Shown piece after piece: positions 5,489-58,952 of a DNA stretch of 64,000 nt (position 1 is its first letter; the number at the start of each line of letters is the position of its first letter). Origin of the DNA: Eledone cirrhosa (Eukaryota). The DNA lies in the NCBI GenBank assembly GCA_964016885.1, contig OZ024748.1:14260001-14324000 (forward strand), written 5' to 3'. The notes beneath the pieces are model-generated. The model was not told the DNA's origin. It saw only the letters and a program-made list of their open reading frames with translations, and searched no databases. The translations under genes were made by a program, and so were the position numbers.

Positions 5489-6421
5489 CACACTCAGAGA
5501 TAATACATTTTTGTTAATGTTTCACAAACAAATTAGGAAAATATATCCCACAGAGAGAATCCGAACAACGTTGCGGTTAAGTTTGACTACAGAATCACTA
5601 GAAAATCATACACAAATATAACTGAAAAAAAACAGCAAGTGCTAAAGGAATTAGCAACTTTAGTAAAATTAGATGTTGAGAACAGAGAAGAGAACACACA
5701 CAGCAAGACGACGAAGAAGAAAAAAGAAAGGAGGAGCTGATGAGTGCTAAATACTTGTGTTTAGCACTAAATACTTATGTATTTAGCACTTCGGCTGTGG
5801 GAAGAAGTCGTGAATACGTTTTACTTTAGAAACAGCTAAATATAGCTTCCTTATATCCCGTCCGTCTTTTAATAATGGTAAAATGGTGCTTAGTCGCAGA
5901 CACAGCGTCCAGTCATCTTAATACAACTGACCAATACCGAGCCTATAAAACTGATACCAAATATATTTTCTCATTATTCACACACATATATGTATACACA
6001 TACTCACACACACACACAAATATGTGTGTGTGTATATATATACACACGCACATAAATGCATATGTATGTATGTGTATGTGTGTATGTGTGTGTGTGTCTT
6101 ATTTCCTTTCTTTTTCTCCTGCTATTATATTTCCGTGTTTTATTCTCTGATCTTGAGTAGTAGTAGTAGTAGTAGTAGCGGCGGCAGCGGTGGCGGCGGC
6201 GGCAGCAGCAGCAGCAGTGAATGCTGCTGTTACTACCCGGATAAAAATGTCAATTTTGAAGTGAGTGTTAGTGGAACAAGAGGACAGGTCAACATCCCTA
6301 ATGAACCAATTAAATAAAAGTTTGTGTAGTTGGCGGTCAGCTTAAATCCTTATAAATAAAGCAAAGCCACTTACTGGAATAGCAGCAGTCGTTATTCACT
6401 GACCAGTGGTTGGCTATCATC

Positions 6422-8767
6422 ATGCATTTGTCTATGTATTTCTGGAGAATTTTAACATTATTTTCTACAATAATTCTGTCACGGTATGTAATAACCAGTC
6501 TTGATTGTCCTTCAAAATGTTACTGTCACGGAAATAAAGTTGATTGCATTGGAGCAAATTTAACTTCTATTCCTACAAATTTACCCAAACATACAAAATA
6601 TCTATATCTCAATAATAATAATATTCAACGTTTGGAAAGTCTACCACTCCAACAACTGAAAACACTTACTCATTTATACCTGCATGATAATCAGCTTTCC
6701 CAGATTGATGAGAACACTTTTAATGCATTGCCTCAACTCTCCGTTTTGCACCTACAAAGAAATAATTTACGTTCCCTATCTCCTGGCATTTTCTCCGGAG
6801 CTTCTAGTCTTCATGATTTAAATTTGTCCAGGAATAAACTATCTGATATATATGGAACATTTAAAAATGTTTCTAGCTTACACAATCTGTATATTTCAGA
6901 AAACTCCATTCAGCATTTGGATGAAAACAGTTTTCCAGACCTTGTGAACCTGAACGTACTGGAACTGAGTAAGAATTTTTTGAAAGGACTTAATTTGATG
7001 GCCTTGAAGAATTTAAAGAATTTATCTGTTTTGAAAGTTGACCAGAACAATATTGGTGATATTAGCACACCTCTTCCTGATGACATTCCTCTTCAAATGA
7101 TGGATTTATCCAGATGTGAACTACGGAAATTTCCTTTACACATACCAAAACACATACAATATTTAAACTTAGGTATGAACAAATTGACGTCAGTCACAAT
7201 AGATAACCTGAAGAAACTGACTTCATTAAAGATTTTGATACTCGATAATAATAGAATACGGGACATTGAACCTAAAGCTTTTGGAATTTTAACAAACCTT
7301 CAGGAACTCTGGTTAAACCACAATGCAATTACACATCTCAACATATATCCACCGACTTCATTAACGTCGCTAGTTCTGGACAACAATAAAATCAAAAAGA
7401 TAGCTTTTAATATATTTCCTGACGATTCAGCCTTGCAGTCAATTTCACTGCAAAGTAATAGTCTGGCTAATATATCAGAACATGCATTTGCAGGTTTATA
7501 TAACCTTAAAGAGCTTATACTTGACAACAATCCTCTCAGCTCTATCCAGGACTTTGCTTTCTCTAAATTGCCGAAGCTAGAAATACTATCACTGAGTAGT
7601 TGTCCTCTCCGTGTTATAGAAAAAGATGCATTTCATGGACTGACGTATTTGAAAAAACTGTACATCATGTTTGTAAAAGAACCTGTAACTAAAATAGAAA
7701 ACTTCGGTGTGAATTTACCTTCTCTGGAAATATTTGATATCCAGTCAAGTCCGACGTTAATTGATCTCATTATCAATTCAGAATCATTTTTATTGACTTT
7801 AAACCAAACAGCCACTTACCTACAAGAATTTAATATTATGAATGGAGATCTCATGACTTTACCAACATATGTAAGAACTTATTTATCCGGTGTAAACGTT
7901 ATAAAGTTAGCTGGCAATCTTTGGCTTTGCGATGAAGAAATAAATATTTTTTTTGAATGGTTAGTAACAGAAGCGGACAAGTTTACACAAAAAGATAAAA
8001 TTACATGTCTCTATCCCAAGTCCCTGAAAGGTGTTCCAATATATAATTTAACTACTGAACAGGTGGAGCAATTACCAGACTTGCGTAAAAGTAAACAAGA
8101 TGGTTTTTTCAATTACCTTTATAAACAAGAGGAAAGAATAATTGTAAAAGACATGGATGAGACAACAAATAATGAACTCATCTACATAATTAATGGGGCT
8201 GTGAAATACTGTCCTGATAATAACGAACCAATCGTCACTACAAGCAAGGACTATCTTCTTAGTGGGGGGACAACTGATACATTACAGTTTACTCGAAACA
8301 TAATTGAATTCGCAAGCAAGGATTCGAATTATATGGAGAGAAATCGTTCGAAAATCAATAACAATCACAAGAGTGGTTCTGAACAATCTAAAAATTCACC
8401 GAATGGCAGAGTTGCCAAAAGCGACCAGCATTTAACACACACAAAGACAAATAACAAACCGACTTTACAGGGAAAACGTGTCGACTTTACTTCAGATATA
8501 TCTACACATTTATTGAGAACACGAATTTTTAACAAAGAAAATCAACTGCCGGATATTACAGTAAAAAGGACTATAACTACTACTACAAGTACCACGACAA
8601 CTACCATGTCAATTCTCCCAACACCTTCCTATTTGAAAGTTTGGGCATCGACAGCGTCAGTAATTACAATGGGCATCTCTTTAGCAACAGGTAGTTTGTT
8701 TTATTTTGTGCTCCGTTTTCGACGGAGGAAATCCCAGAGTAGAAATATTGAACAGTACAGTATGTAA
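6422..8767 (+). CDS. Intronless leucine-rich-repeat type I transmembrane protein (signal peptide, LRRNT, about 19 LRRs, LRRCT, Thr-rich stalk, TM, short tail)
   Basis: 781-codon ORF from ATG 6422 (the ORF track starts at upstream TTG 6410). Hydrophobic N-terminus; CPSKCYC..VDC N-cap; repeated LxxLxLxxNxI/L; NLWLCD..ITCLYP C-cap; TTTTTSTTTTT; TM segment VWASTASVITMGISLATGSLFYFVL followed by RFRRRK. Confidence 0.93.
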   Translation: MHLSMYFWRILTLFSTIILSRYVITSLDCPSKCYCHGNKVDCIGANLTSIPTNLPKHTKYLYLNNNNIQRLESLPLQQLKTLTHLYLHDNQLSQIDENTFNALPQLSVLHLQRNNLRSLSPGIFSGASSLHDLNLSRNKLSDIYGTFKNVSSLHNLYISENSIQHLDENSFPDLVNLNVLELSKNFLKGLNLMALKNLKNLSVLKVDQNNIGDISTPLPDDIPLQMMDLSRCELRKFPLHIPKHIQYLNLGMNKLTSVTIDNLKKLTSLKILILDNNRIRDIEPKAFGILTNLQELWLNHNAITHLNIYPPTSLTSLVLDNNKIKKIAFNIFPDDSALQSISLQSNSLANISEHAFAGLYNLKELILDNNPLSSIQDFAFSKLPKLEILSLSSCPLRVIEKDAFHGLTYLKKLYIMFVKEPVTKIENFGVNLPSLEIFDIQSSPTLIDLIINSESFLLTLNQTATYLQEFNIMNGDLMTLPTYVRTYLSGVNVIKLAGNLWLCDEEINIFFEWLVTEADKFTQKDKITCLYPKSLKGVPIYNLTTEQVEQLPDLRKSKQDGFFNYLYKQEERIIVKDMDETTNNELIYIINGAVKYCPDNNEPIVTTSKDYLLSGGTTDTLQFTRNIIEFASKDSNYMERNRSKINNNHKSGSEQSKNSPNGRVAKSDQHLTHTKTNNKPTLQGKRVDFTSDISTHLLRTRIFNKENQLPDITVKRTITTTTSTTTTTMSILPTPSYLKVWASTASVITMGISLATGSLFYFVLRFRRRKSQSRNIEQYSM

Positions 8768-10355: not shown

Positions 10356-11468
10356 TCCTTCTCTGGAAGAAATCTTCTGTGTTCAGGCATGAGTTGTAAC
10401 AGGCTTTAGAAAATGCCCAAGAAATGCCGCATGCCACTATAGAGACCCTACCATACCATTTATCTAAAGTCATTACTTCACAATTTTATGTGAGAAGATT
10501 TGTTAAATTATGTTACAAACAACAACGTAAACTCCGCCATAAACTATAATTTTCAAATGTATTTGTAAAGCATAAACAGTGCCTATCATTAGGAATATGG
10601 TCATGATAGAATTCAGGAGGAAATAGGAAGAATTATTGTAATTTAACAGCAGGTTATACGTTTTTCATCTAATATATTTTTTTGAACGATTGTGGTTTGT
10701 TGGGTATTTAACCACTATCTATATCAGACTGAATGATCAGAGATAAGATCCTAGCTTCCTTGAGACTGTTTTAGTCATAGATGGTAGGGCAGTGCCCATG
10801 GCCTTTCCCCTGACACCTGAGACTGGTGGGAGTGAGGGAATGAACACATCCTTATACCAAACGCTCTGGCCTGAATGATTGCAACAGATTGGGGTTTGCT
10901 AAAGGCACAAACGGGCCAGCTGGTAGTGTTGAAACCGGCAACAGATTAAGTTAGACCACATCTGTATTTGAACTCAATGTTAAAAGCTACAATAAATGGC
11001 TGTTAAAAGTATTGCAGCTATGGTGATTACTAACATGACCACTGGTGCATAAGATAATTGTTTAATACTTGTCCCTACTTGGGTTGCTACTGATGTTTAA
11101 ATTATAATTTATTTTTAATTGTTATTAATATTGTGTGCGTGTGTGTATACATATATATTGGGTCGTCAAGTATGAAATTTGTAGAAATGTTTAAAAATAA
11201 AATGAATTTCTACAAATTTCATACTTGATGACGCTATATATATACATATACACACGCACACACTGATACACATACTGATACGCATATATATATTGTGTAT
11301 ATATATATGTGTGTGTATATATATACCTTTATATATATATATATATACATATACAAATATACATACACAAATACATACATTATTCAAGCCAAGGTTTTGT
11401 TACAACATATTACAAATCGAAATAACTGTTTTTGTTTGTTTGTTTGTTGTTTTTTTTTGTGCGAGTGT

Positions 11469-14298: not shown

Positions 14299-15720
14299 AT
14301 TTATTAAAATAACAGATTAAAGTTTAAGCAAAGAATCGCTGCTTTCACCCTTAACGGGATTTTCTGAAACTAACAAAGTCAATCTGTAAACGCAGAAGTG
14401 GATATTTAAAAAAAACGTTGCAACCGGAAGAAGACAGGAAGACGATACTTTGGTTCGTGGAAACGTTCCCTGGCAAAGAACGGGAAAAAAAAATGAATAT
14501 AATACGTCATTAATAGGAGCGGTGAAAAACAATTACGCGCAAAGACAAAACCACGTTTATGGTATAAAACGTGGTGGTTCATAGAGACGTTATTAGGTGG
14601 TTCATAGAGACGTTCTCTGGCAATGAACAAAAAAAAAAAACGAAGATAATACGTCATATGTGGTGCGTGGAGAACAATTGCACGCAAAGACAAAACCACG
14701 TAAACGGTATAGCAGAAGTCGTAGACTAAAATTCTAATTAGGAGACCGAATGAATCTCCGCTTCAGAGTTAAGAACAAAGTAAATAAATACAATACAGAG
14801 GTAATAGAAATTAAATAAATACATACACGCATACAAATACGTACATACACAAGCATACGCGAAAACACTTACCATAGGTATACAAAATCACGCACATAAA
14901 TATGTGTGTGTGTGTATGCGTGTATACAAATAAATAAATAATTAAATAAACGTATATAAATAAATAAATACGTATATAACAAGCGCACACACATACCTAC
15001 ATGTAAATACACAAATGTTCGGAGACGTCAGTCAACCAAAACATGAAGTACACACACCCTACATACTTACGAACCTGCATACTCACACAGACGCAAAACT
15101 CCCGTATACACATAACCAAACCATATGTACCAGAAATATAGAATTATACGCCATAACATATACAATGACATATACGTACGAGAAGGTATACGTATCTTCA
15201 CAAAACATACAGGTGATATATGCAAATAAGTAATGGTATAAACATAACATATTCTTACCTACAACATCAAGACGTAAAATATCCACGTATAGATCGTAAT
15301 ATCCGTTAGGGTATAATGTGGGGCTGTAATAGAGGAAAGTTTTGTGCAATTTATGTTTACAAGCCGAAATTGCCTCAGATTTTTTGTTTAAGATGTCTGC
15401 GGCGCAGAGGTCACATGGTCTTTTATTTCCGTTATACGATCTCCCAGTGTAACTTATATTGGGTGTGGTTGTCTTTTAAACTCCATATATAAGCTGAAAG
15501 TGACGTCATATTCCTTCTTAGAGGGTAACGAAAAGAATGGGTATGCATGTAAAGACGCTGCTTGTTAGTTTCAGAAGATCCCGTTAAGGGTGAAAGCAGC
15601 GATTCTTTGCTTAAACTTTAATCTGTTATTTTAATAAATATTTGCTCTACGGTTCTTATATATTTGATATATATTTATCCTTATCTTTGGATTTTAGTCT
15701 TCAAATTTATTATTATTACT
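14299..15720 (+). mobile_element. 1.4-kb non-coding element bounded by 78-bp inverted repeats, each holding a variant HHR motif
   Basis: IR arms 14299-14376/15562-15639 differ by about 1 mismatch. A 3' tail runs to 15720. There is an internal imperfect direct repeat of about 145 bp (14452-14712). A deleted relative lies at 47065-47215. Confidence 0.7.
15567..15617 (+). ncRNA. Variant hammerhead motif (CAGAAGA core, CUU triplet)
   Basis: agttt-CAGAAGA-tccc gttaa gggt-GAA-agca gcgattctt tgct-T-aaact. Stems I, II and III all pair. Confidence 0.5.
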
Positions 15721-15852
15721 ATATATATATATGCAGAGGTTACATTCAACAAGCTTAAACATTTTTATAACTGATATAAAGCACTCAACAAGTTAGTGGA
15801 GTAAATATACAATATATTAATAAATGGAAACTATATTTATAAAACCATAATT

Positions 15853-15916
15853 ATTTTATTATATATATTTCAAGGGCGAGCAAGTTAAATTATGGTGCGC
15901 TTTCATCAGATAAAAT
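15853..15916 (-). ncRNA. Type I hammerhead motif (antisense arm)
   Basis: Exact reverse complement of 16067-16130. Confidence 0.75.
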
Positions 15917-16066
15917 ACAGATTTGTTTTATAAATAAATATTGACATACCCGGAAAAAAGACAACCTCAAAGGTTGAAATTCGCTGGATAGTCTATCCAG
16001 CGAATTTCAACCGTTGGGGTTGTCTTTTTCCGGGTATGTCAATATTTATTTATAAAACAAATCTGT

Positions 16067-16130
16067 ATTTTATCTGATGAAAGCGCACCATAATTTAACT
16101 TGCTCGCCCTTGAAATATATATAATAAAAT
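16067..16130 (+). ncRNA. Type I hammerhead motif
   Basis: attttat-CTGATGA-aag..ctt-GAA-atatatat-A-ataaaat. 7-bp stem I, palindromic stem III, AUA triplet; predicted cut after 16123. Confidence 0.75.
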
Positions 16131-16176
16131 AATTATGGTTTTATAAATATAGTTTCCATTTATTAATATATTGTAT

Positions 16177-21115: not shown

Positions 21116-22049
21116 GGTCACCACCTGCTCACCACCATTGTGTATATGTATATATTTCATGGACATATACTCATGACATCATACATTGCTTAATTGAAAC
21201 CAACCAACCAACCCTACTATTTTATGTTTGAGAAATAAGCAAAAATCCAAAACCCATTTATAACCTAATAAACTAAGGTCCACATTATTTCGAGGACATA
21301 TATAAGCCGACACCCCCATTTTACCATTAATTTTTTGTTCAAATATTCCTCAGTTTATATTCAAATATATACATTAGTCAGCTATTTTATAGTGCCCCTG
21401 TGTCAGGTTTAAAAAAAATGCAAACAGATTTTATACAAGTTAATACAAAAATTCTGTAGAGGTATACATTAGTTTAGAATATCTTATAAACTAATTTTAT
21501 AACAGAATTATGATTATGTAATGTGTTGACATAATGGATAGACAATGATCACATTAAAAATATCCCTATCTTATTTTAACCCTAGGTCTGCTGTGTACCA
21601 TTAATAAGATTCCAGTCATTACAATGGTCAATTATGGTGTGAAATGAGAATTTCTAGTCACATTTAATTTTCTCTTTCGAAATGGCTGGTCTTAGGTCAG
21701 AATTTTAATTGACATATATCATACATAGATCTGTGCATAAGAGTGTATCCATTAATACCTATGTATATGTATGTGCATATATATATATATATATATGTGT
21801 ATGTAGGTATGTATATATGAAGTGTGTCTGGATGTGCATGGTGCATATGTACCTATATACCTATATGTATATGAATATATATATATATATATGTATATGT
21901 GTGGGAGTATGTGCAAGAAAATCATTGTGGGGGTGGGGCATATAGGCATGTATATATGTATTTATAGATTTCTTATGAATGTTGTTTCAGTTTTTATATG
22001 TATATGTGCATGAACACACACACAAATGTATATATGTATATATATATAT

Positions 22050-22238
22050 AACGAAGGAAATGTGGTAAGGAACCAGGTGGACCATAACGCACCTAAGTAC
22101 TCAATACTTACGGTAGTAGAGTGGGTAATAGGAACGAGTAGGACCCCGACGGCTGAGCTCAAGCCATTTCGACGGCTAATTCTGGACTGAATTAGCCATC
22201 AAAACGGCTTGAGCTCAGCCGTCGGGGTCCTACTCGTT

Positions 22239-22243
<5 letters not shown>
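22050..22243 (-). mobile_element. Fold-back half-hammerhead element, copy B
   Basis: Inverted arms around tggact (about 22183-22188); tail on the left begins aacgaaggaa; embedded in (TA)n. Confidence 0.85.
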
Positions 22244-32970: not shown

Positions 32971-32975
<5 letters not shown>

Positions 32976-33162
32976 GAAAGCGTCAGGACCCTGAGGCTGA
33001 GCTCCAGCCATTTCGACAGCTATTTCTGAAATAGCTGTCGAAACGGCCGGAGCTCAGCCATCAGGGTCCTTACTCTTTTCTTATTACCCACACTTCTTCC
33101 CATAGTGTTGAGTACTCTGGTGTGATATGGTCCACCTGGTTCCTTACCACACTTCCTTCGTT
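32971..33162 (+). mobile_element. Fold-back half-hammerhead element, copy C
   Basis: Arms around gacagctatttc-t-gaaatagctgtc; GAAACGGC..GCCATCagggtcc; tail ends ttccttcgtt; (TA)n flanks. Confidence 0.85.
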
Positions 33163-33185
33163 TTATATATATATATATTATCATT

Positions 33186-52793: not shown

Positions 52794-52831
<38 letters not shown>

Positions 52832-53088
52832 GAACGAGTAGGACCCCGACGTCTGAGCCGAAGCCGTTTCGACGGCTAATTCTGGACTAGTAGTCCAGAA
52901 TTAGCCTTCGAAACGGCTTGAGCTCATCCGTCGGGGTCCTACTCATTCCTATTACACACTCTACTACCCTAAGTATTGAGTACTTTGGTGTGTTATGGTC
53001 CACCTGGTTCCTTACCACATTTCCTTTGTTATATATATAAACATATATTTATATAAATATTTATACATACATATATATGTATATATAT

Positions 53089-57075: not shown

Positions 57076-57227
57076 TCTACATATATATTTATCTCACATT
57101 TGTAAATACATAATTAAACATTTTATTATGTCTGTTAAGGAAATATTTAATATGTAAGAAATCTTTGCAATTTTCCTAATATCTCTGTTTTTTATAATAG
57201 AAATGTTATCAAACTAAAAATCTATTA

Positions 57228-57530
57228 TTTTGAAAGCAGGTTAGCTTATTATAAGATGCTACAACACAGGTTTAACTATAAAATATCTTAATGAGGTGGG
57301 TTTATAAATCCTTGGGACAGAAAAATGCAGACAATGTCCCCCGAGGGAAATAAACTTATATATACCATATGTGACTGTCTCCTTTTTTCTGACATATATA
57401 TACCCAACTTATTTGACTATTTTATAGTTAACACTGTGTTGTAGCAGCTTAAGATAATAAGTTAACATACTTTCAAAATTCACATTTGCTGAGTGCTTTG
57501 TAAAACTGTTAGTTACTTCTTTGTTTAAAT
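57228..57530 (+). mobile_element. Old fold-back element with PLE-like tail
   Basis: Imperfect inverted arms of about 60 bp or more (57228-57287/57418-57478), followed by the tail ttcacatttgctgagtgctttg. No HHR core is recognisable. Confidence 0.5.
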
Positions 57531-58607
57531 ATTATTTCATTTATATCAATTGATTTCTTTTTTAAATGTACAAACCAAATTGAATTCCACTTAAGAAATG
57601 AATAATATTGTCTTTTACTATTTCTTATTTTTATTTAACATTTATTTGTATATTCTATATATTTTCTAAAGTTGATCTTTGAATCATATGACAGACAACT
57701 TAGATATCTAATGGAGGAATTTCTAGCTTCTCACGGCTATTTTAAATATTGATGTGACTTTCAGAAATACATCATGGGAAAAAGTTTTTCTTGTTTCCAG
57801 TAGTCACTTGTATTCACAGAAGTATTTATTCATTCATATAATAAACTTAAAGTAATTGGCCTATTTCTGTTTTGTTTTTTAAAAATAATATGTTCCTCTT
57901 TTATATTTTATAATAAATGATATTTGTGTTAGACAGAATTTTCTATAAAAACATTATCTGTAATATTAGTGTTACTATTTATGATCCTTGTGATCTTTGT
58001 TCAATTATTACAGAAATGATATGTAATCAATTCCAATTTATTGTATGAGCCCAACATGTAAATTTATATGATGCAATTAACCTCTTACATATGGGTGTTT
58101 GTCAGCCCTTATGCTTACATATGGCAGATAAGTCCACTATACACACGCACTCACAGTCATGTTGTGGTTGTTGTGTCACATAGCAGTATGTATGTTACAT
58201 TGGTAAAACACTAACTGATACAGAACTCATATGAAGTCAAATAGTTTTATTTTATATAAATATGGCAGTTATTTATATATATATATATATATACTTATAT
58301 AAACCTACACAAACACACACACACAAAATTGAGGAGAGGGGCAGGGCAGAAACAGAAAAAATTCTTTAGAAAAAGATAACAGGTCCATGCATGTTGCCAT
58401 CTCTTGGAAAATATATATCTGTGTATATATACATAAATATGTAATCTGAGGTTTTTGAATATTAATAATAATACTCAATTCGTTTGCAATTATGCAAAGA
58501 ACCTCTTTAAGCCATGTCAGTAGAATGACGCTGTCATTCTTGCTCTTATATATATATAATATATATATATATATATTTGTTATGTAATAAACAACATAAG
58601 ATAATTA

Positions 58608-58667
58608 TTTCCTTTACCAGTGGTTTCTTGAAAGCAACCAAAATTGCTTTCATTCATCAGAATGAAA
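58608..58667 (-). ncRNA. Type I hammerhead motif (antisense arm)
   Basis: Reverse complement of 58746-58805 with one stem I mismatch. Confidence 0.7.
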
Positions 58668-58745
58668 AAATCCTGGTGTCTTTATTGACAGTAGACTTGA
58701 AAAACCACTTTTTCAAGTCCACTGTCAATAAAGACACCAGGATTT

Positions 58746-58805
58746 TTTCATTCTGATGAATGAAAGCAATTTTGGTTGCTTTCAAGAAACCACTGGTAAA
58801 TGAAA
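58746..58805 (+). ncRNA. Type I hammerhead motif
   Basis: tttcatt-CTGATGA-a tgaaagcaa ttttgg ttgctttca a-GAA-acca c tggt-A-aatgaaa. 7-bp stem I, 9-bp stem II, near-palindromic stem III, GUA triplet; predicted cut after 58798. Confidence 0.8.
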
Positions 58806-58952
58806 TAACTATCTTATGTTGTTTATTACATAACTAATAAGCTCTGTAACCTACATAGAGCACTCTTTTTTCCTGGACCTTTCCAATGGAATCACTTCAT
58901 TTATATATATATATATATATCCTAAAGTATGTCCATAGAATCATTTGATAAA

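Follow-up and report, generated by a model that had tools for sequence, protein, structure and literature searches.

A hammerhead-bearing hairpin of Eledone cirrhosa is accounted for as a truncated, inverted insertion of a Hydra-clade Penelope-like element

An inverted repeat with a hammerhead motif on each strand lies at positions 58579-58834 of the window (the whole stretch of 64,000 nucleotides analysed here), raising the question of whether it is a self-contained ribozyme unit or a piece of a larger mobile element. The first-pass annotation described arms of 126 bp, a 4-nt loop and (TA)n on both sides, and this anatomy was recovered in full: the left arm (58579-58704) and the right arm (58709-58834) enclose the loop CCAC and are complementary at 123 of 126 positions (z = -32 against shuffles), the three mismatches being at 58604/58809, 58612/58801 and 58693/58720. 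The right (TA)n begins only after a 66-nt tail (58835-58900), found on the right side only, and a target-site duplication is unreadable inside (TA)n. The hairpin is real and well preserved, and it is accounted for as a truncated, inverted insertion of a Hydra-clade Penelope-like element (PLE), with the following features:

58547..58576, no strand: left (TA)n target microsatellite, from the sequence
58579..58704, minus strand: left arm, an inverted, tail-less PLE terminal repeat that covers +2 to +127, counted from the inferred start of the RNA
58608..58667, minus strand: left-arm hammerhead motif with one helix I mismatch
58705..58708, no strand: junction CCAC, probably made up of the base complementary to the +1 G, an added C and two filler bases
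58709..58834, plus strand: right arm, a sense copy of the PLE terminal repeat
58746..58805, plus strand: type I hammerhead motif, with helix III ACCA-C-TGGT at 58789-58797 and a predicted cut at 58798/58799
58835..58900, plus strand: PLE tail of 66 nt, present on one side only and including a 7-bp stem-loop (58841-58861)
58902..58920, no strand: right (TA)n target microsatellite, from the sequence

On the plus strand, a helix I of 7 bp (58746-52/58799-805) adjoins CTGATGA (58753-59), and a helix II of 9 bp with an A.A apposition (58760/58785) at its foot is followed by GAAA (58786-89), by the ACCA-C-TGGT helix III (58789-97) and by a consensus cut between 58798 and 58799. The full core, helix lengths, apposition and helix III had all been read correctly from the letters in the first-pass annotation. 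A strict hammerhead motif scan gave one match in the window, whereas all 20 shuffled versions gave zero, and Rfam at gathering threshold returned no match. Each strand carries a motif, but the minus-strand copy has a mismatched helix I, with just two contiguous pairs adjoining the cut. Among 18 family members, both partners had changed in 6 of the 7 pairs of helix I, in 4 of the 6 pairs of helix II and in 0 of the 3 pairs of helix III, so that the covariation of helices I-III previously claimed against the element at 2037 holds for the first two helices and not for the third. In this alignment of 18 hand-picked rows from several subfamilies, 88.5% of the cells were paired, 10 of 16 pairs were double-changed and 0 of 500 shuffles attained the covariation score, a result that is no probability because the rows are related. 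The foot position of helix II was paired in 28 of 130 parsed arms (a parse that includes a few wrong registers), with C.A and A.A dominating, and the unpaired foot is a family-wide trait. Judged by its sequence, the motif is a type I hammerhead with a conserved core and covarying helices I and II, for which cleavage is predicted.

Several traits of this motif belong to kinds of feature already published, namely the palindromic helix III with a 1-nt loop, the dimer model, opposite-strand pairs and the tail. The minimal PLE hammerheads of Cervera and de la Pena (2014, PMC4209133) are likewise of type I with a palindromic helix III and a dimer model, but their conserved G10.1-C11.1 pair, which adjoins the core, is formed in just 28 of 130 arms here. 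Hydra hammerheads share with the window's the 4-bp palindromic helix III with its 1-nt loop (PMC8557442 File S2) and a helix II whose foot contains unpaired bases (PMC8557442), and helix III of Hydra-1_oBim, acca-a-tggt, has the ACCA-N-TGGT stem of the window (PMC8557442). The suggestion that a 1-nt loop points to dimeric cleavage thus agrees with the published design of PLE hammerheads (PMC4209133, PMC8557442 File S2). In computed folds, ACCACUGGU takes up no fold alone and forms a self-duplex of -8.2 kcal/mol, as the dimer model of PMC4209133 would have it. In vitro cleavage by metazoan PLE hammerheads is poor, also when they are dimeric (PMC4209133), and cleavage by a lizard PLE hammerhead required its protein (PMC11167929). 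Motifs on opposite strands, 100-700 bp apart, are described as "dual" in Schistosoma (PMC4209133). Penelope-13_HM carries a hammerhead on both strands because of its inverted 5' copy (PMC8557442 File S2).

We asked what the two motifs could do within the hairpin itself. The tested hammerhead helices have a computed pairing probability of 0.0 in the full hairpin RNA of either strand, and in a whole-hairpin transcript the antisense arm is transcribed first. As the two hammerheads lie on opposite strands, no dimerisation is possible within one transcript, and together with the helix probability of 0.0 this leaves the motifs unable to act as a pair here. For the window copy the prediction is therefore a hammerhead trapped in duplex and without activity. 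It would likely act instead on single-sense RNA of the element, at +91, as a dimer or with the help of protein.

The family to which the hairpin belongs is abundant. The host genome of 3.0 Gb holds 2,260 occurrences of an exact 27-nt hammerhead word and 4,236 matches to the tail stem-loop pattern, each with a reversed control of 0; the family and its varied junctions were also present in four contig sets from one study, possibly the source of the assembly itself. The best 28 copies have the same arm length and centres within about 15 nt of the window hairpin's, a constancy that is partly due to ranking by similarity. We also used a sample ordered by position, in which 90 loci covered 93 of the first 100 tail matches. 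In this sample an inverted terminus lay within 1.1 kb of 49 of the 93 tail matches, the 49 resulting hairpins spanned 79-951 nt, and a dinucleotide run followed the tail within 90 nt in 88 of 93 cases. By the strict motif, the core was intact in both arms of 10 hairpins and in neither arm of 24. The reading of a non-autonomous element with a constant centre was overturned by this sample.

These data bear on the possibility of a retrozyme- or viroid-like non-autonomous hairpin with ribozymes in both polarities, which would be transcribed, self-cleaved and copied whole. The centring of the best 28 copies speaks for it, as do two recurrent junction types (8 and 5 of 37 matches), but these junctions are found in two subfamilies and may have the tail to their left or to their right. 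The absence of a fixed unit length and of a core in either arm of 24 of 49 hairpins also counts against it, as do the 0 matches to one tail-to-head pattern, the helix probabilities of 0.0 on both strands, the arms being plain reverse complements, and a sequence that is continuous with an ORF-bearing element. Metazoan non-LTR retrozymes resemble the hairpin as small repeats with type I hammerheads, but they are head-to-tail tandems without an ORF (PMC7229834), whereas the hairpin is head-to-head and derives from an element that has one. We consider such a unit very improbable, and the view of the hairpin as a self-contained dual-hammerhead unit is not supported, given the opposite strands, the helix probabilities and the ORF-bearing element.

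This element was reached through L180, one of the fetched genome loci (numbered with L), which reads in order microsatellite, inverted arm of the window's subfamily, RT/endonuclease fragment, TG/TA-rich 3' UTR, sense arm and tail. With its RT/endonuclease fragment as the search query, 20 of 40 scored places, fetched at about 10 kb each, formed the endonuclease-bearing set. The window arm lies within 10 kb of 14 of these 20 copies (8 placements downstream in sense, 8 upstream inverted and 4 upstream in sense), with no arm within 10 kb in the other 6, and it was found at 0 of 46 loci of other PLE families, 30 of which are only 3.3 kb long. In 5' copies the tail sequence continues into the 5' UTR and ORF, reaching the ATG in three of them (L254, L267 and L251). 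Two further loci, L256 and L258, contain the inverted arm, an RT/EN fragment, a long TG/TA-rich 3' UTR of about 1.7-1.8 kb and the sense arm, with microsatellites on both sides. Compared with the 5' repeat of L254 and the 3' end of L256, the right arm and tail of the window are identical at 187 of 197 positions. Copies of the ORF are mostly frameshifted, the longest open stretch being 637 aa (L267) with YRDD and VVYE..YVG. The ORF has 1,793 relatives, some with PF26215 or PF01541, and a Pfam search with the element ORF itself gave no significant family. By these sequence comparisons, arm and tail together make up the pLTR, or terminal repeat, of a Penelope-like element that encodes RT + GIY-YIG.

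Two other partners were considered for the arm. Neptune-type elements were ruled out, with 0 of 46 loci sharing arm or tail. A second Hydra-like family adjoins one arm (L177) and has its own, different 3' end, and therefore is not the partner of the arm. Inverted repeats, TA flanks and copies in the thousands would also suit a DNA transposon of MITE-like type, bounded by long terminal inverted repeats and targeting TA. However, the linked ORF encodes RT + GIY-YIG and no transposase, the inner lengths vary without limit, and the tail is one-sided in 25 of the 27 top hairpins (2 have tails on both sides, and tail-less hairpins rank lower because the query included the tail), which makes this reading extremely unlikely.

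The Hydra clade is defined by RWK, by DKT in place of DKG, by a CxCX5C linker and by CxxC and CxH motifs around a conserved E and N, and it lacks CCHH (PMC8557442). Correspondingly, we found RMRWK in L252 and L265, SDKT in L265 and L267, CSCRKPDEC and CSLCxTE in 6 of 6 copies each, and N..CxH in 5 of 6; no CCHH pattern was seen by eye in the ORF of L267. The RT was compared by eye with the Hydra proteins in the supplement of PMC8557442. Like other Hydra-clade PLEs, which share these motifs and (TA)n targets, the element has a single ORF with RT and, at its C terminus, an endonuclease of the GIY-YIG type, and it combines a canonical terminal-repeat hammerhead with insertion in (TA)n. Its anatomy is that of EN+ PLEs, with 5' truncation, an inverted 5' copy, a one-sided tail and partial tandems. 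Hydra-clade elements are "generally", though not strictly, shorter than 3 kb (PMC8557442), a size that the unit exceeds since its 3' UTR alone takes up about 1.7-1.8 kb. The Neptune-type L061 gave no significant alignment to the element (best E 0.044). On its ORF motifs, the element is classified as a Hydra-clade PLE.

The nearest named member is Hydra-1_Obim (Craig et al. 2021, PMC8557442), with about 60% identity by hand count over a 97-residue RT block and with different helices I and II. Three words from arm and tail had no match among the Hydra sequences in the part of the PMC8557442 supplement used here. Unlike the Hydra-clade comparison set as far as that source covers it, the element has a clear pLTR, a long 3' UTR and a 66-nt tail, compared with the usual 30-40 bp. 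By sequence, it represents a different family from Hydra-1_Obim.

Having identified the element, we analysed where its arms end. Among 74 arms the end falls at +127 in 37 and, with the tail included, at +193 in 34, while the remaining 3 enter the UTR. A lizard PLE protein cuts AT-rich DNA and extends both strands in vitro, and on uncleaved RNA it primes at two internal positions which delimit the tail (PMC11167929); by analogy the two 3' end sites of the arms match this behaviour. The lizard element, PAc (Poseidon, Anolis carolinensis; Frangieh et al. 2024, PMC11167929), shares with ours an AT-rich target, two 3' end sites bounding the tail, a hammerhead upstream of the tail and a tail that continues toward the coding region. 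It differs in belonging to another clade, in an ORF that starts inside the hammerhead so that the tail is coding (our ATG lies at +312, beyond the tail) and in that a 5' hotspot with an added base is unreported in the portions of PMC11167929 used here.

The symmetry of the arms was followed in 28 close copies, in which 40 of 49 occurrences of variants common to several copies are mirrored in the other arm, compared with 3 of 46 for private variants. Both arms would therefore have been made from like templates at insertion and have drifted later, and gene conversion is an unlikely source of the symmetry given the 3 of 46 mirrored private variants. The hairpin is best described as two head-to-head terminal repeats of a Hydra-clade PLE in (TA)n, likely laid down in one insertion by the element's own EN/RT, a reading to which we give a probability of roughly 0.85.

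Such an insertion could proceed as follows. The PLE protein would cut both strands of (TA)n, and both 3' ends would then prime cDNA inside uncleaved RNA, one at the tail end and the other 66 nt further in. In the window copy both cDNAs would reach the 5' end of the RNA, with a C added opposite the cap, and the cDNA ends would be linked by filler or short homology and completed by fill-in synthesis, so that a palindrome with a one-sided tail results. Alternatively, a single cDNA (or antisense RNA) of the same element might fold back at its end and be copied back. Head-to-head PLE palindromes have been proposed to arise by self-priming on an antisense template (PMC3846280), a number of junctions either form a perfect palindrome or coincide with a short self-complementary word (L029, L030, L079, L081), and in the window copy a G>C change close to the loop is mirrored in both arms. 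However, very unequal arms are joined without symmetry elsewhere (a 230-nt arm to an ORF fragment in L180; also L256 and L258), solo tail-less units exist, and the second arm ends at a fixed +127 that matches the second priming site, so that we regard fold-back as unlikely.

Kilobase palindromes are also found among Neptune-type PLEs, where L066 (G000:C1:438610500-438617500) and L073 (G000:C1:97885000-97893000) each consist of two truncated copies, and L073 has hammerheads in both arms but only one tail.

We then turned to the other end of the arms, near the hairpin centre, past which the sequence of long copies reads on. These 5' ends vary, with a hotspot at +1 that has an added base. In a hand count of the first 100 of 342 arms reaching this point, 13 stopped immediately behind a particular C (an added C was present in 11 of these 13), while 4 ended just before that C, 4 in the next ten bases and 79 read through. 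Genome-wide, 37 matches had C as the added base and 4 had G or T. The C might come from the CCAC of the partner arm in 13 of the 37, and read-through variants account for 2 of the 4 G-or-T controls and for one or more of the 37 added-C matches. The pattern is present in two subfamilies, and the window loop, which begins with CC, fits it. None of 30 fetched added-C copies enters the ORF, and hence no full-length copy beginning at +1 was seen among them; 9 of the 30 are solo units flanked by microsatellites, starting with GG directly after one. Counted from this +1, the hammerhead core would lie at +46, the cut at +91 and the ATG at +312. At full-length L1 junctions an extra G has been attributed to the cap (PMC11702581), and the Penelope transcription start is inside its pLTR. 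The hotspot is likely to be a capped RNA start, judging from these junctions. A short master copy starting with GG, or a C-biased terminal transferase, could also give rise to it. We lean toward the reading that hairpins and solo units record reverse transcription from two internal sites to the 5' end of a capped mRNA. The added G would then mark a start 45 nt upstream of the core on a capped and uncleaved template, and the window copy would be a joined pair of "strong-stop-like" cDNAs.

Other repeats of the window and the fetched loci were recorded as well. A decayed hairpin of a sister family (2032-2412), alike in termini and type of tail and sharing an upstream motif, has GTAA for GAAA in its plus arm; this family has 1,848 candidate places, and in the 29 loci parsed out of 30 it showed no family ORF within 1.5 kb and no clear 5' hotspot. 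Another hairpin (15807-16176) has 185-bp arms, a hammerhead helix III of TATATA and relatives in L071, L072 and L164. A further family (1862-2032, 22046-22240, 32973-33165 and 52830-53030), always in (TA)n and very common in the fetched loci, has short arms without a hammerhead core and a one-sided tail of 85 nt, and is likely another PLE end. On the minus strand, a single hammerhead-like core lies between (TA)n runs at 780-960, with a similar sequence in L205, and a degenerate fragment resembling a Hydra-type endonuclease (E about 1e-6) at 15435-15581. Older or shorter inverted repeats, in which no hammerhead was recognised, occur at 57227-57479, 11132-11262 and 1597-1660, and a plus-strand open frame of 794 aa with leucine-rich repeats at 6383-8767. 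Among the fetched loci, L188-L217 represent a second, very abundant Hydra-like family (59,664 first-look candidates) with a hammerhead-like 3' end before (TA)n, and in L029, L082, L086, L164, L179 and L180 PLE families are nested in each other's (TA)n flanks and TA-rich 3' UTRs, forming clusters.

One addition is that many arms end at one base with an added G, which likely marks a capped RNA start as judged from the junctions; in a mainly open-access literature, taken without Repbase and Dfam, we found no description of the family or of an added G in PLE insertions. The window hairpin itself is ordinary, one among thousands of truncated PLE ends, and it advises caution, as "dual-ribozyme hairpins" of animal genomes can be by-products of insertion. 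If transcribed, such hairpins would form long double-stranded RNA. The origin of the inverted repeats and tails of PLEs is treated as an open question in the parts of PMC8557442 and PMC11167929 used here. For this question the family supplies a large set of natural products, whose 3' ends fall at two fixed sites and whose 5' hotspot bears an added base, and these features point to a capped, uncleaved template. If the reading of the hotspot as a capped start is true, it would provide a minimal RNA of 193 nt for testing how PLE inversions and tails arise.
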